From assembly GCA_904386005.1 (NCBI GenBank), contig CAJFKR010000001.1:139525-203524 (forward strand): a stretch of 64,000 nt of DNA, in the 5' to 3' direction. The position numbers and the translations under genes are program-made. This document shows positions 13,478 through 53,935 of the stretch, in pieces. The notes under the pieces are model-generated. The model did no database searches. It saw nothing but the letters and a program-made list of their open reading frames with translations, and was not told where the DNA came from. Each line of letters begins with the position of its first letter. Position 1 is the stretch's first letter. Source of the DNA: Candidatus Flemingiibacterium merdigallinarum. GTDB taxonomy: Bacteria; Bacillota; Clostridia; Oscillospirales; CAG-272.

Positions 13478-15058
13478 ATGAAACACAAACTGCGCAAACT
13501 ACTCGCGATGATCATGACGCTGTGCATGATTATCCCCACACTCGTGACCGGAGCGGCTGCTGACGACGCGCCGTTCTCTGATATCGCCGGACACTGGGCA
13601 GAGGACACAATCACCCGCTGGGCTGATGTAGGCATTGTCAACGGTTATCCGGACGGGACGTTCAGACCGGATGAATTCATCACCCGCGCGGAACTTGCGA
13701 AGATTGTGACGCTGGCGTTCGGGCTGACTGAAAAGACTGTGACCGAACTCAATGGAATCGACCCGGACGAATGGTATTACAACTATGTCTTGACTGCGGC
13801 GGATTTTATAACTTTGCAACCGATGTCTTTTCTACCGGAAGAGCTACATTTTTATCGTGTAAATCGAAGCGGCGCCAATGAGTTCTTTCCGAATGAACCT
13901 GCGCTGCGCTATCAGGCTGCCGAAGCTTTTGTACAGCTGAAAATATACGCTGACGGCGGTCTGACAAAAGAGATGCCGGAAACTGAAAATACTCAAACTC
14001 TTACGATTCCACAAAGCGATATCACTGTTGAAGTTCCCAGCGCATTTGAAATATTTTTGGAATTAAGGGAAACATTCAATGATTCCGAAATCGGACCACA
14101 AATAATGATGCTCGGTCCGGGCAGATGGGATACAAACCAGATGCGGAATGTTACATTCATGTGGCTCGCTTATGAACTTGGTATCATGCAAGGCGAAATA
14201 GAAGCGGATGGCAGATATTTTCATCCCAACGATTCGCTGACCCGCGCAGAGGTGTTGACCATACTCGACCGCATTCTCACGCCTGAACAGGCGGCTGCTA
14301 ACATGGCTGCTGCCGAAGCTGCGCTTGATGTGCCTGCGCCCGAGCCTGAGCCCGAACCGGTAGAGCTGCCTATACCCGACGGAACCGTTCCGGAGTCAAT
14401 CGACCTTGCCGACCCGAAATACAACATCACGCTGACCCGTGCGCAGTTCGCCGAGCTGCTCACAGTCGCGTTCGACCTTGACGGCGAAACCTCGCTTGCG
14501 CTCACCGACGTTGACCCGAACAGCGAATATTACAGTTACATCAAGGCGGCGGCTGATTATATCCCGAAATTCACCGGATATGAAATGCGCACCGAGGTTG
14601 ACGCGTATTATCAGGCGCAAAACCAATCTCGATACGACGATTTCCTGCCGGACGAGACTATTCTGCGTATGCACGCGTCGCAGTCGTTTACAGATATATA
14701 TGAGCTTCTGTACGGTGTTGAGTTCCCGATTCCGGATGATGCTTATGAGACAGCAGGTGTGATTTCGGCTTATTATGCAGACCCTTCCATAACATCAGTG
14801 GGAGGATTTCTGAATCCTATGATGCGCCCGGGATTTATTGCTGGTAATGTACTGCAATTCCAAAACGCAATCTACACTGGACATGTTCTCGGCATAATGA
14901 ACGATCGAATCGGCACTGACGGGCTGACCTACTTCCTGCCGTACGACGCGCTGACGCTGTCCGACGCGCTCTATTCGATTTTCAAGCTGCTGCCCTCTGA
15001 CGACGCGGAGGTGTTCGCGTCCGAGCTTGATAGCCTGTCGTTCATGCAGGCTGAATAA
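13478..15058 (+). CDS. Secreted SLH-domain protein, paralog B (two copies of the module found in paralog A)
   Basis: The RBS, signal peptide and first SLH motif are near-identical to those of 12561..13457. A second module begins near ITLTRAQFAELLTVAFDL. Confidence 0.75.
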   Translation: MKHKLRKLLAMIMTLCMIIPTLVTGAAADDAPFSDIAGHWAEDTITRWADVGIVNGYPDGTFRPDEFITRAELAKIVTLAFGLTEKTVTELNGIDPDEWYYNYVLTAADFITLQPMSFLPEELHFYRVNRSGANEFFPNEPALRYQAAEAFVQLKIYADGGLTKEMPETENTQTLTIPQSDITVEVPSAFEIFLELRETFNDSEIGPQIMMLGPGRWDTNQMRNVTFMWLAYELGIMQGEIEADGRYFHPNDSLTRAEVLTILDRILTPEQAAANMAAAEAALDVPAPEPEPEPVELPIPDGTVPESIDLADPKYNITLTRAQFAELLTVAFDLDGETSLALTDVDPNSEYYSYIKAAADYIPKFTGYEMRTEVDAYYQAQNQSRYDDFLPDETILRMHASQSFTDIYELLYGVEFPIPDDAYETAGVISAYYADPSITSVGGFLNPMMRPGFIAGNVLQFQNAIYTGHVLGIMNDRIGTDGLTYFLPYDALTLSDALYSIFKLLPSDDAEVFASELDSLSFMQAE

Positions 15059-15154
15059 TATTTTTAATAAAGCTCTTGCATTTTTCCGGAAAACAAGGTA
15101 TAATAGTATTGCTGCAAGGCAATCAAAATATATCCTGCACAAAGGAGAAACAAT

Positions 15155-15877
15155 ATGGAATACGGTCTTCAGATGTACAGCGTACGCGACATCACCGGCA
15201 ACGATCTCGCAGGCGCGCTGAAAAAGGTAGCTGAAATCGGCTATAAATTCGTAGAATTCGCGGGCTTCTTCGGTCATCCCGCTGAGGAAGTAAAGGCTAT
15301 GCTCGACGAGTACGGACTCAAGGTCAGCGGTACTCACTCGGGTCTCGGCGACCTCGACAACGATTTCGCCGGAACGGTCAAGTACCACAAGACTCTCGGC
15401 AACACGAACTACATAGTCCCGGGCGCTCCGTGGGACACCAAGGAAGGTCTCGATTCGACTATCGAAAAGCTGAACAAGTATCAGCCGATGCTCGCGGCTG
15501 AGGGAATCACGCTCGGTTACCACAACCATGACGGTGAGTTCAAGCCGAATAAGGACGGTCAGATCGCTCACGCCGAAATGGAAGCTCGCACCAGCGTCGA
15601 CTTCGAAATCGACACCTACTGGGCATTCTGCGCCGGCCGCGACCCGATCGAGACTATAACCCGCCTCAAGGACAGAGTACACGTCATTCACCTGAAGGAC
15701 GGCACTCGCGACCGCAAGGGTCTCGCGCTCGGCGAGGGCGAAGCTCCGGTGGCGGCAGTCCGCGCTAAGGCGATCGAACTCGGTATGCGCATGGTAGTCG
15801 AGAGCGAAGGTCTCGACCCGACCGGTATCGAGGAAGTCACCCGCTGCTTCAAGTACCTGATGACGCTCGAGAAATAA
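15155..15877 (+). CDS. Sugar phosphate isomerase/epimerase (xylose-isomerase-like TIM barrel)
   Basis: MEYGLQMYSVRD...IGYKFVEFAGFFG...HNHDGEF...VIHLKDG pattern. AAAGGAGAAA RBS. Confidence 0.8.
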   Translation: MEYGLQMYSVRDITGNDLAGALKKVAEIGYKFVEFAGFFGHPAEEVKAMLDEYGLKVSGTHSGLGDLDNDFAGTVKYHKTLGNTNYIVPGAPWDTKEGLDSTIEKLNKYQPMLAAEGITLGYHNHDGEFKPNKDGQIAHAEMEARTSVDFEIDTYWAFCAGRDPIETITRLKDRVHVIHLKDGTRDRKGLALGEGEAPVAAVRAKAIELGMRMVVESEGLDPTGIEEVTRCFKYLMTLEK

Positions 15878-15890
15878 TCTGATTTATATT

Positions 15891-15927
15891 CAGCCGTATA
15901 CGCAGACCGTATGCGGCTGATTTTTTT
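15891..15927 (+). terminator. Rho-independent terminator
   Basis: Stem cagccgtata.../...atgcggctg followed by T7. Confidence 0.65.
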
Positions 15928-16071
15928 GAAAATATTTACGAAAGTAGTTGACAATGCCGAAATAATACTGTATACTATAGTTATACAGTAAATATCCGTA
16001 TTCTATATTGGCAGCAATATTCTATATGGAGCTGACCGAAAAATCAGCTCTTTGTTTTAGGAGGTATCGAT

Positions 16072-16668
16072 ATGCGTGAATGCGAGGACTATGGCAAATA
16101 CGAACGCTGCAAGCATTGCCGTATGCACAAAAGACCGATGTCAAGGCGGCGAATCATTCTGCTTATCGTGCTCGGTGCAATCGTACTGCTGATTGCGGGG
16201 ACTGCCATCGGCTTCGTCGCGTTTGTAAAGAGCGGCGGATATCAGCTGCTCGACGATGTGCTCACTAAAGATACTGTCGAGCGTGTGACGCTGACCTATG
16301 GTATTATCGGCTACGAGCTTGAACTGCGCCCGGGTACGGTCGAATTTTACAGAGCGATAGCGTATACCGAGGATTTGCGCGTATACTTCTGGAGCATCGA
16401 CACCGACATGAACTGGAACGTGAGCGAGACGGTTATATTCGGTGGTCCTCCGCCGGTCGGTATCAATTTTTACCTGAAGGACGGCTCGACGCATCGGGTC
16501 GCGCTTACTGGTACGCGCTACTTCTTCAAGCACAATGTACACAATATCATCGTCGACGGCACGTCGTACATAACCGACGGCTGGCGTATTGAGGAATTGG
16601 GTAAGTTTGTTGAGCCCTACGTCGAGGATCTCATCGAGGGAAACAAGGAATATCAGAATCAACAATGA
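16072..16668 (+). CDS. Hypothetical single-pass membrane protein with Cys-rich N-terminus
   Basis: TM segment IILLIVLGAIVLLIAGTAIGFVAF. Its stop overlaps the start of the next gene (ATGA). No family recognised. Confidence 0.5.
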   Translation: MRECEDYGKYERCKHCRMHKRPMSRRRIILLIVLGAIVLLIAGTAIGFVAFVKSGGYQLLDDVLTKDTVERVTLTYGIIGYELELRPGTVEFYRAIAYTEDLRVYFWSIDTDMNWNVSETVIFGGPPPVGINFYLKDGSTHRVALTGTRYFFKHNVHNIIVDGTSYITDGWRIEELGKFVEPYVEDLIEGNKEYQNQQ

Positions 16669-25120: not shown

Positions 25121-26113
25121 TCAATAATGCACCGGCACATCGGTTTGGGCGCGTATCGTATCGACCCAGCGCGTGACGGCATCGGGAGCGGGCATAGTGT
25201 CGCAAGACCGCGATGTCTCACGGTTCATCGGATATTCGCGCCCGAGCCGCAGGCATTTCGCCGCGCCGAGCGGGTGGTAGGGCTCGACGTCGATTTCGAT
25301 TATATTCGTCAGCCGATTCGCGAGCGAAGCTATTGCCGCGAGGTGCTCTGGGCGGTCGTTCAGCCCGGGGATTATCGGACAGCGGAGTATCGATTTTGCG
25401 CCGACCGAGTCGAGCCGCAGCAGGTTATCGACAATCTGTCGGTTGTCGACGCCAGTGTATTTTTTGTGCAGCACGGGCGAGGTCTCCTTATAGTCGTAGA
25501 GGAAGATGTCGCAGACCTCGGCGAGCTCACGCAGCCGCTCAAATGGCGCGCAGCCGCTCGTCTCGACGCAGGTGTGCAGTCCCGACGCCTTCGCGCCGCG
25601 GAGAAGATTATAGGTGAATTCGAAGCTGTACAGCGGCTCGCCGCCGGTGACTGTCAGTCCTCCACGGACTGTCAGTCCGTATTCGCTGCCGTAGAAGTCG
25701 CGGTCGCGCAGGACGGTATCGAGCGTCTCGCCGACGGTCAGCTCGCGCCCACAGAGCTCGAGCGCTTCGGCAGGGCAGACGTCGGCGCAGCGTCCGCAGC
25801 CAATGCAGGCGGCGCGGTCGAAGATGTGGATTCGGTCGGGGTGACTGTTGTCGCGGTCGGTGTTACCGACTATGCGGTGGCACTCGCAGACCCGCGCGCA
25901 CTCGCCGCAGCCGATACACTTGCTCTCGTCGTAGAACAGCTCGGGTTCACGCCGCTTCGACTCGGGGTTGTGACACCAAAGGCAGTCGAGCGGACAGCCC
26001 TTCAAAAACACCGACGTGCGTATGCCCGGTCCGTCGTGGACCGAGAAACACTGAATATTGAATACTGTCGCGGTTACGGTCGGGTCGAATTGTGTGGATA
26101 AAATCTGGTTCAT
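25121..26113 (-). CDS. Glycyl-radical enzyme activase AE-1 (radical SAM with two auxiliary ferredoxin-type clusters)
   Basis: FNIQCFSVHDGPGIRTSVFLKGCPLDCLWCHNPES, plus CIGCGECARVC and CIGCGRCADVCP. Start set at ATG 26113 (MNQIL), 43 nt after the GRE-1 stop. Confidence 0.9.
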   Translation of the reverse strand: MNQILSTQFDPTVTATVFNIQCFSVHDGPGIRTSVFLKGCPLDCLWCHNPESKRREPELFYDESKCIGCGECARVCECHRIVGNTDRDNSHPDRIHIFDRAACIGCGRCADVCPAEALELCGRELTVGETLDTVLRDRDFYGSEYGLTVRGGLTVTGGEPLYSFEFTYNLLRGAKASGLHTCVETSGCAPFERLRELAEVCDIFLYDYKETSPVLHKKYTGVDNRQIVDNLLRLDSVGAKSILRCPIIPGLNDRPEHLAAIASLANRLTNIIEIDVEPYHPLGAAKCLRLGREYPMNRETSRSCDTMPAPDAVTRWVDTIRAQTDVPVHY

Positions 26114-26156
26114 GTTTGATTTTGTGTCATCTGGTATCAAGTTCGTCGGCTTTATG

Positions 26157-28265
26157 TCAAATCTCGTGCTCGGTGCGCAGCAGAACTTCCTCCTGCATCT
26201 CGGGCGAGAGGTGGACGAAATAATCGCTGTAGCCGCCGATGCGCACGACGAGGTCGCGATAAGCCTCGGGGTTCTCACGCGCGGCGAGCAGAGTGTCGCG
26301 GTCGACGATATTTATCTGTATCTCGAAACCGCCGCGCGCGAGGTAGGCGCGGATAAGCTCGGCGGCTTTGCGGCGCGAGTCGGCGTTGAAGGTCTTTTTC
26401 GTGAACTTCATATTGACCGCGACGCCGCCGATGAGTTCGGTGTGGCTCCACTTCGTGCTCGACAGTATCGACGCGGTCGGACCGCGCCTCTCGCGCCCCT
26501 GACAGGGACCCGAGCCGTCGCCGAGCGGGAATCCGGCGAGCCGTCCGTCGGGAGTCGCGCCGGTCGAACGCCCGAACTGCTCGTGCATAATCCAGCAGAA
26601 CACGCTCGGCACGAGGTGTCCGTTTGTGAACATAGGCGTGTATTTTTTGCATTCGGCGACGATGAAGTCGATGATACGACCGAACAGCGCGTCTACGCGG
26701 TCGATATCGTTGCCGTATTTGTCACAGCGGTTTAATAGCTTCAGCCGCAGCGGCTCGAAGCCCTCGAAGTTTTTGTCAAGCGCGGTCTTAAGTTCTGCAA
26801 GCGTCAGCTCGCCGCGCTCGAATATCAAGGTTCGGATAGCGTGCAGCGAGTCGACGAGATTCGCCATGCCGACAAAGCTCGGCATGATCCAGTTGTAGCG
26901 CGCGCCTCCCTGCTCTATGTCGACTCCGCGACGAAGGCAGTCGTGGACAAAGCAGGAGAGCAGCGGAGTCATTCCGCGCTCGGCGCGAAGTGCGCGTATG
27001 CGGTTCTGCTCGTCGAAGTTCGCGCGGATGTGGTTCGACAGCCGGTCGAAATAAGCGTTTATCAGCGACTCGAAGTCGTCGTATTCGCCGCCGAGCAGCT
27101 CGAGCAGCAGCCCGGGCATATTTGTGTAGGGGCTGGCTACCCAGACGTTCGACGAAGCTATCGGCGTGATTTCGACGCAGGTACTGTGTATGTACATATG
27201 CGAGTCGGACTCGGGCAGACCGTAGAGCCGTATGCCCTTTGAGATCACGTCGTCGTTGAATATTGCTGGATGCGAGCGTCCGTGCGACAGAATCTCACAG
27301 GCGCAGTCGAGGTATTCGTTCGGCATATCGCGCGTCCAGCAGAGCCCGACCGACGGATAGACGAGCCGTATGTCGTCGACGGCGCGCATACCCATTATAG
27401 TCAGCTCGTTCACGACCGGCTTGCCGTTATCGCGGCCGCCGAGCATATAGCCGGACGAGAGTCCGCGCGGCACACGGCGGTTTATCTGTATCGCGAGGCA
27501 GTCGATGAGGCACTGCGCCGTCTCGTCATCGATCGCTCCGCGCTCGACGTCGGCTTTGTAATAGCGGTAGAGGTAGCGGTCGGGGCGGCCGAGCTGAAAC
27601 TGCTGCGCGGCGAAGTAGCGGAAAGGGTCGAGCGTCAGGCAGTGCGTGACAAAATGCACCGACTGCACGGCTTCCCAGAAGCTCTCGGCAGGACCCGCGG
27701 GCACGCGGCGGCAGATGTTGGCGATAGTCCGCAGCTCTGCGGCGCGCTGTGGGTCGGTGCATTCAGCCGCGAGCTGCTCGGCACGGTTCGCGTAACGGCT
27801 CGCGTAGACCTTGACGGCTTCAAGGCAGGTGCGGCAGCAGCGGTAGAACGCGGCTTTGTCGCCGTCCGTATCGCCGAGTCTTTCGAGACAGGAGTCTATA
27901 ATAGATATAATGCCGTCGATTCCACCATCGAGCAGCAGGTCGTAGTCGACAGCCATATGCGAGTCCTGTCCGGCGATAGCGAGGCGGCTCGCGGCAATCG
28001 GCTGCAAACGCCGCCACTCATCGGCGTCGGCTTCGGTGAGCGGCGCGGACAGGTGTCCGACAATCAGCTCGTCGTCGTCAATCTCGGCGTCGAGTCCGGA
28101 GAGGGCGGTATAATAGGAGCGTGCGTAGCGTTCGCGGTCGTCAAGCTCGGGGCGGCGCTCCCACTCACGCCAGAAGCCGAGGTACATGGCTTCGTGGCAG
28201 AAGCGCGGCTCAACGGCGGCGCTCCGCAGGCGTTCGATGCGCTCGCGGTCGGAAGCTGTAAGCAT
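26157..28265 (-). CDS. Glycyl-radical enzyme GRE-1 (PFL-like fold, eliminase-type Cys-x-Glu loop), 702 aa
   Basis: C-terminal VVRIGGYSDYF with Gly codon at 26232..26234. Thiyl loop STCVE with Cys codon at 27177..27179. N-terminal ERIERLR...DDELIVG pattern. GAAAGGTG RBS before ATG 28265. Confidence 0.9.
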   Translation of the reverse strand: MLTASDRERIERLRSAAVEPRFCHEAMYLGFWREWERRPELDDRERYARSYYTALSGLDAEIDDDELIVGHLSAPLTEADADEWRRLQPIAASRLAIAGQDSHMAVDYDLLLDGGIDGIISIIDSCLERLGDTDGDKAAFYRCCRTCLEAVKVYASRYANRAEQLAAECTDPQRAAELRTIANICRRVPAGPAESFWEAVQSVHFVTHCLTLDPFRYFAAQQFQLGRPDRYLYRYYKADVERGAIDDETAQCLIDCLAIQINRRVPRGLSSGYMLGGRDNGKPVVNELTIMGMRAVDDIRLVYPSVGLCWTRDMPNEYLDCACEILSHGRSHPAIFNDDVISKGIRLYGLPESDSHMYIHSTCVEITPIASSNVWVASPYTNMPGLLLELLGGEYDDFESLINAYFDRLSNHIRANFDEQNRIRALRAERGMTPLLSCFVHDCLRRGVDIEQGGARYNWIMPSFVGMANLVDSLHAIRTLIFERGELTLAELKTALDKNFEGFEPLRLKLLNRCDKYGNDIDRVDALFGRIIDFIVAECKKYTPMFTNGHLVPSVFCWIMHEQFGRSTGATPDGRLAGFPLGDGSGPCQGRERRGPTASILSSTKWSHTELIGGVAVNMKFTKKTFNADSRRKAAELIRAYLARGGFEIQINIVDRDTLLAARENPEAYRDLVVRIGGYSDYFVHLSPEMQEEVLLRTEHEI

Positions 28266-28287
28266 AGACACACACCTTTCAAACAAG

Positions 28288-28549
28288 AGTGGTCTCGACT
28301 TCAGCGAAGCTGAAGTCGAGAGAGTGGAGAGTGGAGAGTGGTCTCAAACCGCCGCAGGCGGTTTGAGAGCTGTGGTAGGAAATCGCCGGAGGCGATTTCC
28401 GGAATTGATTATAAGAGAGGAGAGATGAGAGTGGGGAACGGACTCACCGCGGATGGTTTCGAGAGAACGGGCTCCCAAAGGGTGGTTTCGAGAGAGCGGA
28501 CTCACCGCGTGTGGTTTCGAGAGAGTGGACTTCCCACGGGTGTCGGAGC
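28288..28549 (+). repeat. GA-rich modular hairpin array (three long GNRA-like-looped hairpins plus 29-nt tandem units x3.5)
   Basis: Hairpins at 28293..28321, 28342..28368 and 28378..28400. 29-nt units start at 28438, 28467, 28496 and 28525. The 28318..28400 core recurs at 53783..53862. Confidence 0.7.
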
Positions 28550-28609
28550 TATAATAGCGGGCGGAATGGATTTATGATTGATATCGGTATTAAGACGCTC
28601 CTATAATCA

Positions 28610-29125
28610 TCATTCCTTGACAAAATAGCACATATCGAGAATGACGTTTCCTTTTTCGTCGGGGGTGGTGAAGCGGGGGCACTGGTAACGCTCGAAGAAC
28701 CAGAACGCGCCGTCCATAATCGCAAGCTCAAGCCCCTCGTCGGCAAGGCGAGGACAGATAACGTCCTCACGGCAGTACAGCTCGCCGTTTGACTCATTGC
28801 CGTAGACCTAAGCGACGCCGATTGGCGCGGCGGGGAAATCGTGATAGTCGAGTCCCTCGGGAACGGCGGTGTCAGGCTTCATGAACATTCCGATCCAATA
28901 TTCGAACGGCTCGCCGTCGAGGTGGCGCATGAGTCCGATATACGCGCCGCTGTCCTCGAAAAACTGCTCTCCGGCGATTGCTTCGAGCCGCTCGAATAGT
29001 CCGGTCTCGAACGCTTCGCCCCATTTTGCGCCGAAGCTGCCGTCGTCGCGGTCGTCGTCCGAGTATTTTTTGCCGATAAAGCGGGTCGCGGGCAGGGATT
29101 GTTTATAGATTCGCTTAATTTCCAT
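28610..29125 (-). pseudogene. GyrI-like / AraC-effector-binding-domain small-molecule-binding protein interrupted by an in-frame TAG
   Basis: MEIKRIYKQSLPATRFIGKKY...PIGVA, then TAG (28808..28810), then in-frame VYGNESNGELYCRED...MCYFVKE to the stop at 28610..28612. AAGGAG RBS before ATG 29125. Confidence 0.7.
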
Positions 29126-29373
29126 CGTGTGACTCCTTAGCTTTGTATTGCCGAACGCCATCGGATGCTAAGCGTTCGATTATGGTATAATCATACTACC
29201 ACACGGCTTCTGCCATGTCAATAGCCGGCGCGCAACCTGACGATATTCTATAAATGCTACAAAAATGCAGGTGCAATTTGTACAAATTGCGAGGGCGAGC
29301 TGTCAATATGCTTTTAATACTCCGATTGTGTTCGACTTCGATTTGATGTCATATCAAGAAATATGTTCGTTTC

Positions 29374-30351
29374 TCACAACAGCTTTACTCCGTGAGTGGT
29401 CAGATATTCGCCCGCCGCTCGCAGCTCATCGCGCGTCGGCGGCTGACAATCGCTGTCGCGAACATTGCGTCCGAGCGCGGACAGCTTCGAGTTGCCCCAG
29501 GCGTGATAGGGCAGCAGCTTCACGCCGCCGCAGCGCTTCAAGCGTAGGTACAGCGACGCGATATTGTCGAGGTGCCGCTCGTCGAGGTTAACGCCCTTTA
29601 TCAGGATGCACCGCAGCTGTGTCGGCGCGCCGAGCGAGTCGACCGCGAGCAGATTGTCGACTATCACATCGAGCGCGGCGCCGGTGTTCGCGCGATGCCG
29701 AGCGTCGTCCGAGTCCTTGTAGTCCCAGAGCAGCAGGTCGCACAGCTCAACCAGCCGAGGTATGTATTTCGGGTCAAAGCAGCCGCAGGTCTCGACCGCC
29801 GTTCCGATACCGCGTCGGCGGCACTCGGCGAGCAGATCGAGAGCGCAGTCGGGGCTGTACATCGGTTCGCCGCCCGACAGCGTGATTCCACCCTTAGTTC
29901 CCATGAACGCGCGGTCGCGCTCGACAAGGTCGGCGATTTCGGATATCGACATGAGCCGGTACGACGCCTCGAGCGCACCGGTCGGACAGGCGTCGACGCA
30001 GGCAAAGCAGGATTTGCAGCGCGCGCGGTAGATTGTATGCGAGATGGGGATATTGGTGGGAGTGGGTACGTCAGTGTGAACAGCTTCGAATATATGCGCG
30101 CGGCTCGGGCAAGCCTTGGCGCACTCGCCGCAGCCGATGCACTTCTTTTCATAATATAATAGCTGCGCTTCGCGGCTCTGCGTCTCGGGGTTGTGACACC
30201 ACCGGCAGGACAGCGGGCAGCCGGCGAAAAACACTACCGTCCGCACGCCCGGTCCGTCGTGCATACAAAAACGCTGAATATTTGTTACCGGTATCTGAAT
30301 TCCTATTACCTCCTTTCCTTGCCGATGTTTTGTGACGGTTTTGCGAAGCAA
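29374..30351 (-). CDS. Glycyl-radical enzyme activase AE-2 (start uncertain: TTG 30351, or ATT 30300 behind a strong RBS)
   Basis: NIQRFCMHDGPGVRTVVFFAGCPLSCRWCHNPE, plus CIGCGECAKACP and CKSCFACVDACP. Confidence 0.88.
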   Translation of the reverse strand: MLRKTVTKHRQGKEVIGIQIPVTNIQRFCMHDGPGVRTVVFFAGCPLSCRWCHNPETQSREAQLLYYEKKCIGCGECAKACPSRAHIFEAVHTDVPTPTNIPISHTIYRARCKSCFACVDACPTGALEASYRLMSISEIADLVERDRAFMGTKGGITLSGGEPMYSPDCALDLLAECRRRGIGTAVETCGCFDPKYIPRLVELCDLLLWDYKDSDDARHRANTGAALDVIVDNLLAVDSLGAPTQLRCILIKGVNLDERHLDNIASLYLRLKRCGGVKLLPYHAWGNSKLSALGRNVRDSDCQPPTRDELRAAGEYLTTHGVKLL

Positions 30352-30405
30352 ATCGCGGTCTGTGACCGCGAAGTCACAAAACGCGTGGTTTGAAAAATTT
30401 ATTTT

Positions 30406-32568
30406 TCAAACTTTGCCCTCAAGCTCGGCGATTATCATGTTCTGCCAGTCGCAGTTCAGCGTCACGAAGCGTGCGTTCCAGCCCGACACGCGCACCGACA
30501 GCGCTTGATAATTCTCGGGGTGCGCCTGCGCGTCGCGCAGTATGCTCGCGTCGGCGACGTCCGGCTGCATGAAGAAACCGCCGAGCGTAACAAAGCCGCG
30601 CATCAGTCCGACGATAGCGTCGAGTCCCTCGTCGCCGTCGACGCTGTCGGGCAATAGCTTGATGTCGAGTGCCGCGCCGGTCACTTGCTTTGTGAGGTCG
30701 GCGGCGGCATACGACCGGATAATCGCGGTCGCGCCCTCGCGGTCACTGCCCGGGGTCGGCGAGCAGTTCGGGGCGAGCACCTCATGTGCGCGATGTCCGT
30801 GCGGCGACGCGAGCCGGTTCGGCGCCCACTCGAGCTGACGACCGAACGTGCTGACTCCGCTCGGAAAGCGATACCCGCAATTTGTGCCGAGCCTTTGCTC
30901 CATGTCATGACAGATGTCCGAGAAGTCGGAGAGCAGCTTTGAATAGATCGAGTCGACCTCGGGGTTGTCGTTGCCGAAGTAGCGGTACGCGGTCAGCATA
31001 TGCTGTCGGAGCGGCTCGCTTTCGTCCCAGTCCGCGGCGAGAATATCGAAGAATTCATCGAGCCCCAGCAGCCCCTCGTCGAATACGGCTTTCTTAATCG
31101 CGTACAGGCTGTTCACCGTGTCGGCGAGTCCGCCGATGTGCGGCGAGATGACGTTGTAGACCGGTCCGCCCTCGAAGTAGGAATATCCCCTCTCGATACA
31201 GCCCTGCTCGAACAGCGACACTACCGTGCAAGGGGCGGTCGGACGCCAGACGAGCCTGCCGTCAGGGTCGCGCTCGGTCTCGAAGCGCGCGAGCTGACCG
31301 CGTCCGATTCCCTCGACATATGCCTTGAGGTCGCGGACATACGCGTCGTACAGCGCGTCGAAGTCGGCGAAATCTCGATTCTTGTAGTCGGCGAGCGTCG
31401 TGTGCTGCAAAATCGCGAGCGAGTCGAACGGCGTGTAGATGAAGTAGGTCTTGCCCGGGATCTGCACCTCCCAGCAGCCGTCGTTCGCGAACCTTTTCGC
31501 TTCGCGCTCGTCGTATCCGAATTTGGTCAAGGCGTCGATAATCAGCGGCTCGTTGTACAGCGCGATTATGCCGCCGCCGTAGCGGATAGTGTTCGCGACG
31601 CGGTAGAGAAGCTCGTCGCTCGAGTCGGGCGAGATACGGACGGTTATCGGGAAATCGCTGATACCAAGCTCGTCGATTATGTCGAGGACGAGGTAGGTGA
31701 CATTGCACTCGACCGAGTTGTCGTTCTCGTCGATGCCGCCGAGCAGGATATTCTGATAATGCTGCGCATCGCCACTGCCGTAGTCGCCGCCGCTGACCCA
31801 CTCGCAGCCCTTGATGAAGAAGTGCGCGAGCAGCTCGCGCGCTTCGTCGAGTGTGATTTTGCCGTCGGCGAGGTCGCGCTCGAGATACTCGCCGAGCAGC
31901 ATATCAATCCGTCCGATGCCGGGCCAGTTTCCGCAGAGCCGCACAAACGCGAACGTGAACCACAGGCTCTGCACCGCCTCGCGGAAATTCGACGCCGGCT
32001 CGAACGGCACGCGGCGGAGTATGTCGGCGTTGTCGTGATATCCGCCCGCTTCAAGCGCGTTGATATAGCGGTCGCGCCAGATTAGCATTGAGTCAAGGCA
32101 GCTTTTACAGCTTGCGAGAAACTTAAGCCGTCGGGTCGAATACAGGTCGCTGTTAAATATTATCTCCGACATGGATTTTTCTATTTTGTCGTAAAGACCT
32201 ACGACTCCGTCTCTCAGCACCGACACAAAGTCGAGCGTCAGGTGGCTGACGCTGCCGAACACCGGACGACCGTCGATTGTCGCCGGAACGACGTGCGATA
32301 TCGCAAGTCCGAGTGTCGCCGCGCCCGATATAAGCTCGCCGTCACAGATTCGTATCGGCGCGCTCTCGGCGATACGGCGGATCGCGGCGTTGTATTTTTT
32401 CAGGTCGGACAGCTCCGATATGCCGTCGATATCGTCGAGCGGCACCGACATCACGCGTCGGGTGTCGAGCCCGTAGCGGTGGTCATACAGCGATTCATAC
32501 GCGAAGCGTCGCGTCGCGTCCGAAAGACGCACCGGACGCTTTTCTTTTGATACTGTGAAGAATTCCAT
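30406..32568 (-). CDS. Glycyl-radical enzyme GRE-2, 720 aa
   Basis: C-terminal SVRVSGWNARF with Gly codon at 30481..30483. Thiyl loop DGCWE with Cys codon at 31474..31476. GGGGAG RBS before ATG 32568. Confidence 0.9.
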   Translation of the reverse strand: MEFFTVSKEKRPVRLSDATRRFAYESLYDHRYGLDTRRVMSVPLDDIDGISELSDLKKYNAAIRRIAESAPIRICDGELISGAATLGLAISHVVPATIDGRPVFGSVSHLTLDFVSVLRDGVVGLYDKIEKSMSEIIFNSDLYSTRRLKFLASCKSCLDSMLIWRDRYINALEAGGYHDNADILRRVPFEPASNFREAVQSLWFTFAFVRLCGNWPGIGRIDMLLGEYLERDLADGKITLDEARELLAHFFIKGCEWVSGGDYGSGDAQHYQNILLGGIDENDNSVECNVTYLVLDIIDELGISDFPITVRISPDSSDELLYRVANTIRYGGGIIALYNEPLIIDALTKFGYDEREAKRFANDGCWEVQIPGKTYFIYTPFDSLAILQHTTLADYKNRDFADFDALYDAYVRDLKAYVEGIGRGQLARFETERDPDGRLVWRPTAPCTVVSLFEQGCIERGYSYFEGGPVYNVISPHIGGLADTVNSLYAIKKAVFDEGLLGLDEFFDILAADWDESEPLRQHMLTAYRYFGNDNPEVDSIYSKLLSDFSDICHDMEQRLGTNCGYRFPSGVSTFGRQLEWAPNRLASPHGHRAHEVLAPNCSPTPGSDREGATAIIRSYAAADLTKQVTGAALDIKLLPDSVDGDEGLDAIVGLMRGFVTLGGFFMQPDVADASILRDAQAHPENYQALSVRVSGWNARFVTLNCDWQNMIIAELEGKV

Positions 32569-32764
32569 TGCGGTATCTCCCCTCACAAGAATTGATGTGT
32601 GATTTAATTATACCATATATCGCGCCCGATTTGTATTGACAAAACTATGATAAATATGTATAATACTATTAATAAAAAAACCGCTGTCCGGCGCTTCAGT
32701 CGCACGGCAGCGGAAATATATAAATTATGGATTCGCGGTTTTTGCTAAAAATATGAGGGATAAT

Positions 32765-33547
32765 ATGAAAATCGAGACGATAGACATAAAATACCATTTC
32801 TACGGGCGGTTTCGCGACAATCACTGCGACAACGTGCGCAACATCAAGTCGCTGCCCTGGCTGTCGGTCGTGCAGGCGGAGACCGGACGCTATTCTCTGC
32901 GGCTCGGCGGCAGCGAGACATACGAGATCCCGACCGGCGGCTTCTTCATCGCGCCGTCGCAGGTTACACAGGACATCGTCCACCACGTCGACCAAATGTC
33001 GGGGACGATGAACGCGCGCTGGCTGTTCATTGAGATTGAGGTGAACGGCGGCTACAAGCTCGAACACCTCTACGATTTTCCGGCGGTGGTCGGCGGGGAG
33101 ACTTCGATCAAATTGAACCGGCTGTTCGACGATATGTTCGCGTCGCGCACTCTCTGCGAGCGGATGAGTATTTACTACCGGATAATCGACATTCTGCTCG
33201 GCATCGCGTCGCCGAGGTCGGTGATGCTCGCCGGAAATATGCTCGATATCGCCGGCTACATAGCGAGCAACTACAGCCGTGACCTCTCCGTCGCCGAGCT
33301 CGCGGCAAGGGCGCATATGTCCGAGTCGAACTTCTACGCGGTGTTCCGGCGCAACTTCGGTATGTCGCCGATGGCCTATCTGAACCGATACCGTCTGTCG
33401 GCGGCGTCCGTGCTGTTGACCAGAACAGATCTGACGATAGCCGAGGTCGCGTCGTCGGTCGGGTATACCGACCCGCTCTATTTCAGCCGGCAGTTTCATC
33501 GGCTGTTTCAGGCATCGCCTCGCGACTACCGCAAGGCGGGGGTGTGA
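32765..33547 (+). CDS. AraC-family transcriptional regulator, divergent from GRE-2
   Basis: HTH region LSVAELAARAHMSESNFYAVFRRNFGMSPMAYLNRYRL...YTDPLYFSRQF. GAGGGA RBS before ATG 32765. Confidence 0.85.
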   Translation: MKIETIDIKYHFYGRFRDNHCDNVRNIKSLPWLSVVQAETGRYSLRLGGSETYEIPTGGFFIAPSQVTQDIVHHVDQMSGTMNARWLFIEIEVNGGYKLEHLYDFPAVVGGETSIKLNRLFDDMFASRTLCERMSIYYRIIDILLGIASPRSVMLAGNMLDIAGYIASNYSRDLSVAELAARAHMSESNFYAVFRRNFGMSPMAYLNRYRLSAASVLLTRTDLTIAEVASSVGYTDPLYFSRQFHRLFQASPRDYRKAGV

Positions 33548-33777: not shown

Positions 33778-35256
33778 ATGCTGAAATATTCAAATCGAAG
33801 TCTGCTGCCGGTTCTGGTGCTGCTCGCGGCGATAATAGCTTCCTGCGGTACCGTCGAGACGGCTGATACCGAAGCCACGACGGCGATTAGCGATACAGGA
33901 ACGGATACATCATCCGAAAAGCCGCTTCCGGAGCTGCCGGAGGACGACTTCGACGGCTACAATTTCCGTGTGGCGCACTGGGATATGCCCGACTGGCCTA
34001 TGCGCGCCTGCGTCGATATTGTAGGCGAGAACAACGGCGACACGATAAGCGACGCGGTCTATCGGCGCAATCTCGCGGTCTGCGAGCGTTACAATTTTGA
34101 AATATCACTGATTTCGGTGAGGTGGGACGAGCTGAAAGGCATGGTCACGAACGCTGTCATGGCGGGCGACGACGCGTTCGACCTTGTGATTCTGCGTATG
34201 TATGAGGGAAAGGATCTGCTTACAACCGGTCAGCTTGTCGATTTCCACAGCATTCCCTACATCGATCTGACCGCGCCGTGGTGGGACTCGAATTGCTCGG
34301 ACAATCTGACTATCGACGGCAAGCTCTATTACGCCGCGTCCGACCTTACTATCGAGGACAAGAACGCGACGTCGGCAATCCTGTTTAACAAAAAAATCGC
34401 CGACGATTACGGCGTCGAAGATCTGTATTCGCTGGTGAGATCGGGTGAATGGACGATTGAACGCATGATGAACATCTATTCCGAAGTCACTTCTGACCTT
34501 GACGGCGACGGCGAGCTGGGCGAAAACGATATCTGGGGCTTCCTCGGCGGCAACGATGTCGGCAGCGCGTTCTTCCTCGGCGGGGGCGGCAAGTATTTGT
34601 CCAAGGACGGGAGCGGCGTCTTTTACGACTCGTTCAACACCGAACGGAATATAGAGCTGTCGCAGCTGATACAGCGGCTTATGTCTGACAGCGACAATTT
34701 CTACAATCACCACACAGGTGCGCAAAAGGTTCCGATAACCGACGACACCGAATATCGAAATCTGTTCGCGAGCGGAGCGGGGCTGTTCTATTGGGATAGG
34801 CTCGACGCGGTCTCGGACCTGCGTTCGCTCGACACCGACTTCGGTATTCTGCCTACACCGAAATATGACGCCGAACAGGAAAATTACATAAATCAGGTTA
34901 GCCATCACACGATGGGATTACTCTCGGTGCCGGCGACGCAGACCGACCTTGAGCGCACCGGCATCATACTCGAGGCGCTGTCGGCCGAGTCGCGCTATGA
35001 GCTCAATCCCGCTTATTATGATGTGTTGCTTAAGACCAAGTCGATACGCGACGAGGATTCGTCGGAAATGCTCGACATAATACTGGCGAATCGCTGTTAT
35101 GACTTCGCCGCGATATTCAACATCGGCGGCTGGCCTGATGAACTGATAAATGTGATGAAGAACGGGTCGGCTATAGTTTCAAGCTATGAAAGCTACGCGA
35201 CAAAAATCGAATCCGCGCTGGACGACATCTACGACGAGCTGTCGATACTCGACTGA
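33778..35256 (+). CDS. ABC transporter sugar/oligosaccharide-binding lipoprotein (family 1), with no adjacent permease genes
   Basis: Lipobox LLAAIIASCGT. Paralogous to 58038..59468 (shared DAVYRRN, WW, SGxWxIxRM motifs). Confidence 0.85.
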   Translation: MLKYSNRSLLPVLVLLAAIIASCGTVETADTEATTAISDTGTDTSSEKPLPELPEDDFDGYNFRVAHWDMPDWPMRACVDIVGENNGDTISDAVYRRNLAVCERYNFEISLISVRWDELKGMVTNAVMAGDDAFDLVILRMYEGKDLLTTGQLVDFHSIPYIDLTAPWWDSNCSDNLTIDGKLYYAASDLTIEDKNATSAILFNKKIADDYGVEDLYSLVRSGEWTIERMMNIYSEVTSDLDGDGELGENDIWGFLGGNDVGSAFFLGGGGKYLSKDGSGVFYDSFNTERNIELSQLIQRLMSDSDNFYNHHTGAQKVPITDDTEYRNLFASGAGLFYWDRLDAVSDLRSLDTDFGILPTPKYDAEQENYINQVSHHTMGLLSVPATQTDLERTGIILEALSAESRYELNPAYYDVLLKTKSIRDEDSSEMLDIILANRCYDFAAIFNIGGWPDELINVMKNGSAIVSSYESYATKIESALDDIYDELSILD

Positions 35257-37426: not shown

Positions 37427-38962
37427 TTACTGCCCGAACTTGAGCTTCGCGAGACCTCCCTCGGCGGTCTCCTTGTATTGGCGCGAAATGTCGAGTCCGG
37501 TCTCCTTCATCACGTGTATGACCTTGTCGAGCGAAATTTTGCGCGAGTCGACGAGGAAGCTCGCGAGGCTGACCGCGTTTATCGCGCGCATTGCCGCGAC
37601 CGCGTTGCGCTCGATGCAGGGGATCTGCACAAGCCCGCATATCGGGTCGCAGGTCAGACCTAAGTGGTGCTCGATGGCGATTTCGGCGGCGTATTCAATC
37701 TTGTCGAGGTCGAGTCCGAACAGCTCGGCGAGCGACGCCGCGGCCATCGCGCAGGCTGAGCCGATCTCCGCCTGACAGCCGCACTCGCTGCCCGATATCG
37801 ACGCGTTCGTCTTGATGAGGTTGCCGACGACACCGCCCGCCGCGAGCGCGCGCAGTATCTCCATATCGGTATAGTCGCGCTTCTTCTGCTGATAGTATAA
37901 AACCGCCGGCAAAACTCCCGACGAGCCGCAGGTCGGCGCGGTGACTATCGTCTCGGCGCAGGCGTTCTGCTCGCTGACCGCGAACGCGTAAGCGCAGACC
38001 ATGCGGTTCTCGCGCGTCTCGGCACTCTCGTCTATATGCTCGCGGCATAAAAGCTGCTTTGCCTTTTTCTGCACGCCGAGTCCGCCCGGGAGTATGCCCT
38101 CGTCGGCGAGTCCGCGCTCAATGCTCGCTTTCATGCCGCGCCAGATTTCGGAGAGGTAGTCCCAGATGCCGCTGCCCTCGGCGCGCTCGACATACTGCCA
38201 GAGCCGCAGATTGTTCGCGCGGCACTCCTTCGCTATCTTCTCGAACGACGATACCGGATAGACGTCGGGCGGCTCGGGCAGCAGGTATTTGTCGTTCTCG
38301 AATCTTCCTCCGCCGGTGCTGACAACGCGGATGCGGTCAATCTGTGCGCCTTGTCTGAACGCGATCATGTCCATTGTGTTCGGGTGCGGCAGGTCAAGCT
38401 CGGTCGTGTTGAAAATGATATCGCAGCTGACCGGCGCCAATGTGGCTTTGATTACCCGGTCGGTGCCGTGACCGATTCCGGTCTTGGCGAGCGAGCCGTA
38501 GAGTATCACCTTGAAACGGTCGGCGGTCGGGTTCTTCTCGCGGAACATACGCGACGCGCGTTCGGGCGCTATAGTGTGCGAGCTCGAGGGTCCGCGCCCG
38601 ACGAGGTATAGCTCGGTCAGCGATTTCATACCGGTGGGAGAGGGCTCATCTCTGATTTCAGATTGCAGCTCGCTGCCGAAAAAGTAATCGACCGGAACAT
38701 TGAAGATTTTCGCGAGCTTATACACATTCTCGGTTGACGGCAGCGCGAGTCCGGTCTCCCATTTCGAGACGGCGCGGTTGCTGACGCCGAGCCGCTCGCC
38801 GAGCTCTCGCTGTGTGATGCCGCTGCGTCTGCGCAGCGCGGCGAAGGTCTTAGCAAAGGCTGTGTCTTTAGCAAAGGCTGTGTCTTTAGCAAAGGCTGTG
38901 TCTTTAGCAAAGGTTTCGCCTTTAGCAAAGGCTTTGCCTTTGGCAAATTCGTTTTCGTTCAT
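37427..38962 (-). CDS. XRE-type HTH domain fused to single-chain iron-sulfur L-serine dehydratase (beta + alpha domains)
   Basis: HTH ITQRELGERLGVSNRAVSKWETG. Dehydratase motifs GRGPSSSHT and APTCGSSGVLPAVL. N-terminal FAK-type hexapeptide repeats. Confidence 0.85.
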   Translation of the reverse strand: MNENEFAKGKAFAKGETFAKDTAFAKDTAFAKDTAFAKTFAALRRRSGITQRELGERLGVSNRAVSKWETGLALPSTENVYKLAKIFNVPVDYFFGSELQSEIRDEPSPTGMKSLTELYLVGRGPSSSHTIAPERASRMFREKNPTADRFKVILYGSLAKTGIGHGTDRVIKATLAPVSCDIIFNTTELDLPHPNTMDMIAFRQGAQIDRIRVVSTGGGRFENDKYLLPEPPDVYPVSSFEKIAKECRANNLRLWQYVERAEGSGIWDYLSEIWRGMKASIERGLADEGILPGGLGVQKKAKQLLCREHIDESAETRENRMVCAYAFAVSEQNACAETIVTAPTCGSSGVLPAVLYYQQKKRDYTDMEILRALAAGGVVGNLIKTNASISGSECGCQAEIGSACAMAAASLAELFGLDLDKIEYAAEIAIEHHLGLTCDPICGLVQIPCIERNAVAAMRAINAVSLASFLVDSRKISLDKVIHVMKETGLDISRQYKETAEGGLAKLKFGQ

Positions 38963-51701: not shown

Positions 51702-53687
51702 ATGTCACAAGCCCTGCTTGACTATGTCCTCGCCGGTGAGCATCACGCGTTCCGCCGAGACGCCGCCGACGCGCTCGGAATCGACAATCTCGCCGAATAC
51801 TACCGCGCCGCCGGACTTACGCCCGAGGAGCGCATGGCGGACCGCTTCGAGCGGCTCTGCCGTGCCGAAACACCGCGTATACTTCCGGACGAAAAAATCT
51901 GCTATGTCCGCACGATAAAAAATATCCCCGACTGCTTCACGCCCGACGAGTGGGACGAGATACGAAAAGGTCACTTCATCCACGAGATCGGCTATATCTC
52001 GAACCTCTCGCCCGACTACGCGAAGGCAATCTCGCGCGGCCTCGTTGCACTGCGCGAAGAAGCCGACGAATACGGACGGCGCGCTATCGACAACATCATC
52101 GACCTCGCCGACCGCTACCGCGACGAGGCTTTGCGTATCGGCCGCGGCGACATCGCCGCGACGCTCGAGCGCGTGCCGCGCTACGGCGCGACGAATCTGC
52201 GCGAGGCGTTGCAGTTCTTCCGGATAATCCACTTCTCGCTCTGGCTCGAGGGCAACTACCACGTCACGACCGGACGCTTTGACAAATACATCTACCCCTA
52301 CTTCAAAGCCGACATGGACAAGGGAATATATACGCGCGAGACCGCGCTCGAGCTCATCGAGGACTTCTTCATCTCGTTCAACAAGGACAGCGACCTCTAC
52401 CCCGGAGTTCAGCAGGGCGACAACGGTCAGTCCATGGTGCTCGGCGGCCGCGACAAAAACGGGCGCGAATGGTTTTCCGAGCTGTCCGAGCTCTGCCTTG
52501 AGGCGAGCCGGAATCTCGGGCTGATCGACCCGAAGATAAACCTGCGCGTGTCGAAGTCGACTCCGATCGATGAATACATAAAGGGCACCGAGCTCACCCG
52601 CGCCGGACTCGGCTTCCCGCAGTATTCGAACGACGACGTCGTAATCGACGGGCTTGTCTCGCTCGGATATTCGCCCGAGGACGCGGCGAACTATGTCGTC
52701 GCCGCCTGCTGGGAGTTTATAATCCCGGGCTGCGCGTTTGATGTCGTGAATATCGGCGCGCTGTCATTCCCTAAGGTTATCGACACTGTGCTTCACACGA
52801 GCTTTTCGGGCTGCAATGACTTTGACGAGCTGCTGGGGAAAGTGCGCGACGAAATCAACGCCGAATGCGACTCGATAACCTCGAAGATTCACGATTTGTG
52901 GTTTGTGCCGTCGCCGTTCATGTCGGTCATGCTCGACGATATCAAGTACCGCAATTTCGGCATACACGGCACCGGCATCGCGACCGCCGCCGACTCGCTC
53001 GCGGCGATTCGAAAATATGTCTATGACGATAAATCCATAACTCCAACCGAGCTTATCGCCGCGGTCGACGACAACTTCGAGCACACTCCCGAGCTGTTGC
53101 ACAAGCTGCGCTATGACGCGCCGAAGATGGGACGTGACGACGACTATGTCGACGGTATCGCTACGTCGCTCGAGGATATGTTCGCCGACTCGCTCGCCGG
53201 CCGCCGGAACTGTGAGGGCGGAATCTATCGCGCCGGAACCGGCTCGGCTATGTACTACCTCTGGCACGCCGCCGAAATCGGCGCGTCGCCCGACGGCAGA
53301 CGCCGCGGCGAGCCGTTCGGCACGAACTTCTCGCCGAGCCTGTTTGCCGATACTGACGGTCCGGTGTCGGTCATAAAGTCGTTCACAAAGCAGCATCTCG
53401 GCAGGGTGATAAACGGAGGTCCGCTGACGCTCGAGTTCCACAACAGCGTATTCCGCGGCGACGACAGCCTTGAAAAAGTCGCGGCTATAGTCAAGTATTT
53501 TATCGACCGCGGCGGTCATCAATTGCAGCTGAACTCGGTCAATCTCGAGACGATGAAGGACGCGAAGCTGCACCCCGACAAGTACCGCCGTCTGGTCGTG
53601 CGGATCTGGGGCTGGAGCGCGTACTTTGTCGAGCTCGACCCCGAGTATCAGGATCATGTTATCGCGAGACAGGAATACAGCATTTAG
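51702..53687 (+). CDS. Glycyl-radical enzyme GRE-3, 661 aa (shortest of the three)
   Basis: C-terminal VVRIWGWSAYF with Gly codon at 53610..53612. Thiyl loop AACWE with Cys codon at 52707..52709. GAAAGGA RBS before ATG 51702. Confidence 0.9.
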   Translation: MSQALLDYVLAGEHHAFRRDAADALGIDNLAEYYRAAGLTPEERMADRFERLCRAETPRILPDEKICYVRTIKNIPDCFTPDEWDEIRKGHFIHEIGYISNLSPDYAKAISRGLVALREEADEYGRRAIDNIIDLADRYRDEALRIGRGDIAATLERVPRYGATNLREALQFFRIIHFSLWLEGNYHVTTGRFDKYIYPYFKADMDKGIYTRETALELIEDFFISFNKDSDLYPGVQQGDNGQSMVLGGRDKNGREWFSELSELCLEASRNLGLIDPKINLRVSKSTPIDEYIKGTELTRAGLGFPQYSNDDVVIDGLVSLGYSPEDAANYVVAACWEFIIPGCAFDVVNIGALSFPKVIDTVLHTSFSGCNDFDELLGKVRDEINAECDSITSKIHDLWFVPSPFMSVMLDDIKYRNFGIHGTGIATAADSLAAIRKYVYDDKSITPTELIAAVDDNFEHTPELLHKLRYDAPKMGRDDDYVDGIATSLEDMFADSLAGRRNCEGGIYRAGTGSAMYYLWHAAEIGASPDGRRRGEPFGTNFSPSLFADTDGPVSVIKSFTKQHLGRVINGGPLTLEFHNSVFRGDDSLEKVAAIVKYFIDRGGHQLQLNSVNLETMKDAKLHPDKYRRLVVRIWGWSAYFVELDPEYQDHVIARQEYSI

Positions 53688-53912
53688 TGAGGAGTTAGGA
53701 GTTAGGAGTGAGGAGTTTCGGTAGAAATTCGCCGAAGGCGAATTTCTGAAACAGAGTGGACTCAAATTCGCGAAGCGAATCCGAGAGAGTGGAGAGTGTG
53801 TGGTCTCAAACCGCCGAAGGCGGTTTGAGAGCTGTGGAAGCAATTCGCCGGCGGCGAATTGCAATTGTTGGAAATTAGAATCCGGCGGATTTGGAAATGA
53901 GTGGTCTCACCA
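53688..53912 (+). repeat. GA-rich modular hairpin array between GRE-3 and AE-3
   Basis: AGGAG x4 run at 53689..53715. Hairpins at 53723..53747, 53761..53787, 53804..53830, 53840..53862 and 53879..53891. The core is shared with 28318..28400. Confidence 0.7.
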
Positions 53913-53935
53913 CACGATTATGAATTATCCCGGCT

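Follow-up and report, generated by a model that had tools for sequence, protein, structure and literature searches.

Glycyl radical enzymes (GREs) drive several health-relevant reactions in the gut, and whole clades of these enzymes are without experimental validation according to a 2026 review (PMC13450708). The same review ascribes a Cys-X-Glu (CXE) motif to all eliminases and isomerases, and makes no mention of Trp at X. The motif reads Cys434-Val435-Glu436 in HypD (PMC7077986) and Cys468-Ile469-Glu470 in IslA (PMC8473560), and in benzylsuccinate synthase (BSS) the catalytic Cys493 is followed by Met494 (PMC11194802). The substrate lies above the Cys loop, and the Cys and the Glu of CXE both contact it (PMC13450708, PMC7077986, PMC8473560). 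Here we analyze a stretch of 64,000 nucleotides from Candidatus Flemingiibacterium merdigallinarum (the window; contig CAJFKR010000001.1, positions 139,525 to 203,524, forward strand), which encodes three GREs resembling pyruvate formate-lyase (PFL), designated GRE-1, GRE-2 and GRE-3. In GRE-2 and GRE-3, the small aliphatic X typical of CXE-type GREs is replaced by Trp (C-W-E). An earlier interpretation of the window (the sequence-only reading) had pointed to this residue on the premise that characterized eliminases carry G-C-V-E. The premise holds for HypD and, in our alignment, for propanediol dehydratase (PD), glycerol dehydratase (GDH), CutC, HpyG and PflD, all with Val at X, but not for IslA, which has Ile.

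Sequence comparison indicates that C-W-E is a conserved signature of two large, deep-branching and uncharacterized clades. Their members are GREs with a short N-terminus, and are common in Clostridia of the gut and rumen. Among the matches listed, which comprise the best 120–150 of each search, NDGCWE is found in 119 of 120 close relatives of GRE-2 (~709 aa, 60–67% identity; the remaining one has GCRE), and AACWEF in at least 119 of 120 relatives of GRE-3 (66–97% identity). The Trp is also kept in 70 of 72 full-length GRE-2-family open reading frames (ORFs) from GTDB species genomes, and in 65 of 70 GRE-3-family ORFs from metagenomes. A profile of the two families, compared with 1.84 billion cluster representatives, gave 2,735 matches at E <= 1e-30, of which at least 73 carry C-W-E. 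The best 150 of these matches yielded 139 sequences of at least 600 aa, which together with the three window GREs form a sample of 142. The sequence-only reading had proposed counting C-W-E across a broad set of GREs; in this full-length sample X is Trp in 75 sequences, Val in 31, Tyr in 7, Ile in 5 and Gln in 4. The frequency of Trp at X is far beyond chance, and the C-W-E proteins are short, with a median length of 709 aa vs 776 aa.

The sampled C-W-E sequences fall into clade A, which includes GRE-2 and combines NDGCWE with R[VM]xGW or R[ML]GGL, and clade B, which includes GRE-3 and combines AACWE with RVWG[W/F]. The core subclades that contain GRE-2 and GRE-3 each receive a bootstrap value of 100% in a neighbor-joining (NJ) tree. 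C-W-E does mark distinct, uncharacterized lineages. An exclusive clade of A plus B has a bootstrap value of 3%, and wider groupings reach 5–45%. Mean identity is 27% between the clades, below the 29–30% that separates either of them from the remaining sequences, and ~35% within each clade. Because of the 3% value and the low A–B identity, the tree does not decide between a single origin of C-W-E and convergence. GCWE is also present, independently, in P0331, a canonical-length protein that passes the TIGR01774 model of the PFL2/glycerol dehydratase subfamily. Two sequences depart from their clades: P0278, in the GRE-3 clade, has AAGSCF at the Cys loop and CVRDW in place of RVWGW, and is probably a frameshifted or decayed copy; in P0243, which belongs to the GRE-2 clade, the glycyl motif is RVSGG, where Gly replaces the Trp after the radical Gly.

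A scan of GTDB genomes identified at least 553 stretches encoding relatives, of which 80 were kept, all belonging to the GRE-2 family. Their hosts are Clostridia, Oscillospiraceae, Christensenellales and similar metagenome-assembled genomes, in addition to the isolate Fumia xinanensis NSJ-33. The GRE-2-family gene of this cultured human-gut isolate (L064, NZ_JACRSV010000001.1 500867..518945) encodes a product with 57% identity, NDGCWEVQ and RVSGW, which makes the organism tractable for experiments.

GRE-2 (30406..32568, minus strand) is a 720-aa protein of clade A, 100% identical to the database protein P0001, and GRE-3 (51702..53687, plus strand) is a 661-aa protein of clade B; residues are numbered from the ATG at 32568 and the ATG at 51702, respectively. 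The reverse complement of 31465..31485, AAC GAC GGC TGC TGG GAG GTG, encodes N-D-G-C-W-E-V in GRE-2, with the Cys codon at 31474..31476, Trp at 31471..31473 and Glu at 31468..31470. GRE-3 reads VAACWEFII (Cys 52707..52709, Trp 52710..52712, Glu 52713..52715) and GRE-1 reads STCVEIT (Cys 27177..27179), so retranslation at these codons bears out the motifs given for all three enzymes in the sequence-only reading. The motif C365-W366-E367 of GRE-2 (31468..31476, minus strand) aligns to GCVE of PD, and C336-W337-E338 of GRE-3 (52707..52715, plus strand) aligns to C433-V434-E435 of GDH. In phmmer comparisons with solved structures, the Cys of GRE-2 pairs with the Cys of 'IIGCVEPQVPGKT' in PD, and that of GRE-3 with Cys433 of GDH. 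These are the catalytic Cys of the two dehydratases, and the Cys of C-W-E is therefore assigned as the catalytic one, in keeping with the earlier assignment. A second G-C-x-E string in GRE-2, EQGCIERG, was considered and rejected as the catalytic site, as it aligns to 'DDCIKRGMS' of PD, outside the Cys loop. The Glu two residues past the Cys (E367 and E338) is invariant in all four alignments of relatives (A1–A4). The AF2 models have pLDDT values of 93.0 (GRE-2) and 89.7 (GRE-3). A Foldseek search with the GRE-2 model returned only GREs among the top 50 matches, and the model superimposes on PD, GDH, HypD, CutC and PflD with a TM of ~0.83 at 20–24% identity.

The three window proteins match PF02901 (E 1e-78 to 1e-112) and PF01228 (E 1e-16 to 1e-24), and the glycyl motif is located near the C-terminus of each: RVSGW in GRE-2 (G696), RIWGW in GRE-3 (G637) and RIGGY in GRE-1. 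A radical-SAM activase gene (PF04055/PF13353) adjoins each of them, an arrangement that is kept in homologous loci. A sequencing error or a pseudogene as the source of the Trp is ruled out by the intact ORFs, the plausible ribosome-binding sites and the conservation over hundreds of homologs. GRE-2 and GRE-3 are thus predicted to be intact, activase-paired GREs of the CXE type, that is, eliminase- or isomerase-like. They lack the two adjacent Cys of PFL, the residue preceding the Cys being Gly in GRE-2 and Ala in GRE-3, and score 80–84 bits with TIGR01255 vs a cutoff of 994. With TIGR01774 (cutoff 678.2 bits), GRE-2 scores 275.7, GRE-3 298.5 and GRE-1 437.2, all below the threshold. The best scores with models of characterized equivalogs (HypD, CutC, HpsG/HpfG, PRK09983 (NF007437), IAD, HPAD and PFL) are 226–342 bits vs cutoffs of ~1000–1150, and representatives of the remaining C-W-E subclades are also below the equivalog cutoffs. 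PRK09983, which is named 'formate C-acetyltransferase' and which we take to correspond to E. coli PflD, gives 223–240 bits vs a cutoff of 1109.

No C-W-E was found among solved GREs in a comparison of 23-residue loop peptides with the PDB, where PflD, with GCVE, was the sole GRE match and the remaining matches were irrelevant, nor among the named families in the NCBIfam models. A full-text literature search for 'GCWE' or 'CWE' with 'glycyl radical' returned nothing, and 'GCVE' likewise gave nothing. The motif is thus not common among characterized GREs, as the sequence-only reading had anticipated: no solved or named GRE carries it.

The residue at X varies together with other positions of the core. 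The barrel-strand position equivalent to GDH Tyr640 ('AGLYPVS' in PD) is among the five best discriminators between C-W-E and non-C-W-E sequences in the whole alignment. When X is Trp (76 sequences), this position is Gly, Ala or Ser in 71 and Phe, Tyr, Trp or His in 2, whereas the corresponding counts are 9 and 35 when X is aliphatic or any other residue (58 sequences). The position is occupied by Ser573 in GRE-2 (30850..30852, minus strand), by Gly514 in GRE-3 (53241..53243, plus strand), which is invariant in the alignment of its relatives (A4), and by Phe556 in the C-V-E enzyme GRE-1. Ala is found here in the C-Y-E sequences that branch within clade B. Small non-Trp lineages (CTE/CSE/CQE and CAE/CVE/CIE/CNE), which the NJ tree tentatively places next to clade B within the short GREs (with a bootstrap value of 45% for B plus group G1), have Phe, Trp or Met.

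The loop of the radical glycine differs as well. The residue after this glycine is Trp in 50 of 73 C-W-E representatives vs 8 of 66 others, and the residue before it is Trp in 35 of 73 vs 9 of 66. In GRE-2, G696 is followed by W697 (30478..30483, minus strand), and in GRE-3 the radical glycine is located between two Trp (W636-G637-W638; 53607..53615, plus strand). A Trp before the glycine is also present in relatives that lack Trp at X (groups G1 and G2). In addition, the canonical strand motif 'ADGxSP' is changed to 'x-N-x-S-P' in both C-W-E clades ('APNCSP' at residue 601 of GRE-2, 'GTNFSP' at residue 542 of GRE-3); the Asn is present in 54 of 73 C-W-E representatives, and Gly, Ser or Asn is found in the others.

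The explanation that we favor, with moderate confidence, is that the Trp belongs to a core that has been repacked around the radical pair of Gly and Cys, in clades that act on different substrates. Canonical GREs combine a small X (Val, Ile) with an aromatic residue on the barrel strand, at the position of GDH Tyr640. The C-W-E enzymes have Trp at X and Gly, Ala or Ser on the strand, so that the Cys loop itself would supply the aromatic wall next to the thiyl Cys, usually along with a further Trp that flanks the radical glycine. The chemistry would be that expected of CXE enzymes, in which the thiyl radical would abstract hydrogen from the carbinol carbon, the Glu would deprotonate the hydroxyl, and a β C–O or C–N bond would be cleaved. 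In a modeling study of BSS, Cys493 is described as fixed between the Gly loop and a tight packing of the Met494 (the residue at X), Leu766 and Gln707 side chains (PMC11194802), which shows that the side chain at X packs against the thiol alongside strand residues. Relocation is preferred over added bulk in the pocket because of the size swap at the Tyr640 position, this packing in BSS and the location of the substrate above the loop. The sequence-only reading had proposed that a bulky Trp reshapes the roof of the active site. The covariation suggests instead that the Trp makes up for bulk that was lost at another position, and the loop is better described as the floor, since published structures place the substrate above it (PMC7077986, PMC8473560).

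Several observations weigh against this explanation. The covariation of the Trp with the strand residue is confounded by shared ancestry. Exceptions are found in P0331 (CWE with Trp on the strand) and P0277 (CWE with Phe on the strand), and the group with CYE and RVTGW mostly retains an aromatic residue at the strand position. Gln707 of BSS is equated with Tyr640 of GDH only by its similar spacing to the radical Gly (122 vs 123 residues). Finally, Tyr640 is presumably an active-site residue of GDH, and a full-text literature search found no mention of it.

The sequence-only reading had further supposed that the Trp may mark a distinct class of substrates common to GRE-2 and GRE-3 even though the two are divergent overall. 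The divergence is evident: they share 26% identity, and the distance between them is no smaller than that to C-V-E enzymes, with 25% and 30% identity to the C-V-E paralog GRE-1. The common class, in turn, finds little support in this identity, in the low bootstrap value of a C-W-E clade, in the residues at the general-acid position and in the unlike gene contexts. At the general-acid position (GDH His164, PD His166, CutC Asp216), GRE-2 has His109 (32242..32244, minus strand; 'gsvsHltld' pairs with 'GVGHVTV' of PD), equivalent to the general acid of the diol dehydratases, and GRE-3 has Asn101. GRE-3 retains His187 at the position of GDH His281. Clade B lacks the five-residue segment that bears the usual substrate-packing aromatic residue (GDH Tyr339, HypD Phe340, CutC Phe395), and GRE-2 retains a Tyr at this position.

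In the GRE-2 family (71 GTDB loci), a divergent AraC homolog is located upstream in 39 loci, and in 41 the next gene downstream, in the same orientation, is an activase homolog. Across these loci, only the AraC regulator and the activase are conserved, and the context does not point to a substrate for GRE-2. A link to GDPD genes was considered and discarded, as in the clustering they occur near three loci only and are not a general feature. On one contig with a GRE-2 homolog (L011), a second, different short GRE of 666 aa (14634..16130) is accompanied by its own activase and followed by 2-hydroxyacid dehydrogenase and GDPD genes.

In the GRE-3 family (76 loci), an activase homolog is the next downstream gene on the same strand in 44 loci. 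Carbohydrate-related genes surround this family, with a GH127-like gene in 7 loci and a sugar MFS transporter in 7, and the regulators found are of the LacI type in 12 loci and the AraC type in 15. In the window, a gene for a GH36-like protein (PF05691, Raffinose_syn; 54954..57032, plus strand) is located downstream of the GRE-3 activase gene. Such a gene adjoins GRE-3 homologs in 9 loci, 8 of them among the 33 in which each flank spans 3.5 kb or more; besides the window, occurrences were recorded in L007, L012, L013/L094, L095, L114, L119, L123, L124 and L129. It is found downstream of the activase gene, immediately upstream of the GRE gene (in L012 the two overlap at the GRE start), or as a neighbor on the opposite strand, and these three differing arrangements suggest a functional link beyond synteny. 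The substrate of the GRE-3 clade is probably carbohydrate-derived. The difference between His109 and Asn101 and the differing gene contexts suggest that the GRE-2 and GRE-3 clades most likely use different substrates.

The alternatives to a repacked core must be weighed against the same data. The indole could line the pocket and select a substrate class common to all C-W-E enzymes, for instance by stacking on a sugar or another ring. The invariance of the Trp across clades that are so divergent internally fits this idea, as do the carbohydrate-rich loci of the GRE-3 family (GH36-like in 9, GH127-like in 7, sugar MFS in 7 and LacI in 12), and in clade B a different aromatic residue could substitute for the missing substrate-packing segment. 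However, the GRE-2 family has no conserved carbohydrate or pathway neighbors, the clades are unlike at the general-acid position, the substrate contacts listed for solved GREs are the Cys, the Glu and strand residues and never X, and PflD, which converts sugar phosphates, is C-V-E in the alignment. We therefore regard a role of the Trp as determinant of a substrate class as unlikely. The Cys-loop Trp and the Trp on one or both sides of the radical Gly could also form an aromatic cluster that alters the stability of the Gly/Cys radical, its oxygen sensitivity or the hydrogen-transfer equilibrium, independently of the substrate. The co-occurrence of C-W-E with Trp beside the radical Gly points in this direction, and IslA offers a precedent, with Trp374 unusually near Gly805 and Cys468 (PMC8473560). 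Nevertheless, a Trp before the glycine is also seen where X is not Trp, and such tuning shares ground with a repacked core and is compatible with it; as an account of its own, it seems to us quite improbable.

A lineage marker fixed by drift once or twice, and persisting without a specific role, would be compatible with the poorly supported deep phylogeny, in which few independent origins can be demonstrated. This account is nonetheless very improbable in view of the near-total invariance of a residue beside the catalytic one over dozens of 50%-identity clusters, the coordinated changes at other core positions and the independent C-W-E in P0331. A bolder and doubtful, though conceivable, extension is that the enzymes combining C-W-E with Gly-Trp constitute one or two functionally new GRE classes. 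The substrate of the GRE-3 clade would then be derived from carbohydrate and released or processed by the neighboring GH36-like and GH127-like enzymes, and the Cys-loop Trp would be mechanistically essential, as a substrate platform or in a Trp cluster controlling the Gly/Cys radical pair, a design unseen in characterized GREs.

The three GRE–activase pairs of the window lie within ~30 kb (25121..32568 and 51702..54877). The activating enzyme of GRE-2 (29374..30351, minus strand; PF04055, PF13353 and Fer4 domains; exact start uncertain) is encoded next to its partner, and an AraC-family regulator (32753..33547, plus strand; PF12833, PF00165) is divergent from GRE-2. The GRE-2 pair stands in tandem with GRE-1 and its activase on the minus strand, and a 117-aa ORF (28808..29161) that matches no Pfam family lies between the two pairs. 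GRE-1 itself (26157..28265, minus strand) is a 702-aa paralog that served as comparator, and has S-T-C363-V-E, in which Thr, rather than the usual Gly, precedes the catalytic Cys (27171..27182). The activating enzyme of GRE-3 (PF04055, PF13353) is given by its ORF bounds (53936..54877, plus strand), and its true start is probably later. Beside the AraC gene of the GRE-2 module, a 492-aa predicted lipoprotein (33778..35256, plus strand) has no Pfam match and resembles a solute-binding protein. None of the GRE-2 homologs examined has it nearby, but weak relatives are present at 3 GRE-3-family loci. A 511-aa ORF (37427..38962, minus strand) joins an HTH_3 domain at the N-terminus to the beta and alpha domains of serine dehydratase; it is an unusual fusion, or else the ORF is over-extended.

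C-W-E makes at least 73 clusters (50% identity) of uncharacterized GREs easy to recognize by sequence, and is accompanied by coordinated changes at both radical-holding loops. The enzymes are encoded by hundreds of species-level genomes from Clostridia of the gut and rumen, among them the cultured Fumia xinanensis NSJ-33. If the aromatic residue has indeed been relocated, a concrete and cheap mutational test is available (W-to-V combined with small-to-Tyr on the strand), and the enzymes would show how far packing around a thiyl radical can vary. If the Trp contacts the substrate, it would point to a new substrate class.

A comparison with described systems places the window enzymes at varying distances. 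The alpha subunit of BSS has a larger residue, Met494, after the catalytic Cys493, and this residue and others on the strands pack against the thiol (PMC11194802). BSS differs from the window GREs in that it catalyzes fumarate addition, requires small subunits and is far more distant (E 1e-22 to 1e-34). To our knowledge, BSS lacks the Glu of CXE. IslA, the isethionate sulfite-lyase, is a CXE eliminase in which X is not Val, and its Trp374 is closer than usual to the Gly/Cys pair (PMC8473560). Unlike the Trp of C-W-E, this residue is located off the Cys loop, on another element at the position of CutC Phe395 and HypD Phe340, and IslA is further distinguished by an Arg/Gln sulfonate-binding set and a length of ~830 aa. 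YbiW and PflD, isomerases of 1,5-anhydroglucitol- and mannitol-6-phosphate, are CXE-type GREs with carbohydrate-derived substrates, and the GRE-3 family resides in carbohydrate-utilization loci. PflD (8ID0, 'VGCVETSIPG') is the best solved match to the Cys-loop peptide of GRE-2, with Val at X; for YbiW the review gives the CXE motif only (PMC13450708). Both are full-length proteins (~765–810 aa), unlike the short window GREs.

The best solved relatives are the B12-independent GDH of C. butyricum (1R8W/1R9D; E 1e-73) and PD of R. inulinivorans (5I2A/5I2G; E 1e-65), with a TM of 0.83, GDH being the best match of GRE-3 (E 1e-73). The window proteins are 20–24% identical to these enzymes and ~70–130 residues shorter at the N-terminus, with C-W-E for C-V-E, Gly-Trp for Gly-Tyr, and Ser (GRE-2) or Gly (GRE-3) at the Tyr640 position. 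GRE-3 additionally lacks the Tyr339 segment of GDH and has Asn at the His164 position, and GDH Asp447 corresponds to Asn in GRE-3 and to a gap in the alignment of GRE-2. Another difference is that no genes for microcompartments or aldehyde processing lie near the window GREs. Like GDH and PD, the window enzymes have the ten-stranded barrel, the Cys and Glu two apart on the Cys loop, the RVxG-aromatic motif and a dedicated radical-SAM activase, and GRE-2 also keeps the general-acid His of the two dehydratases.

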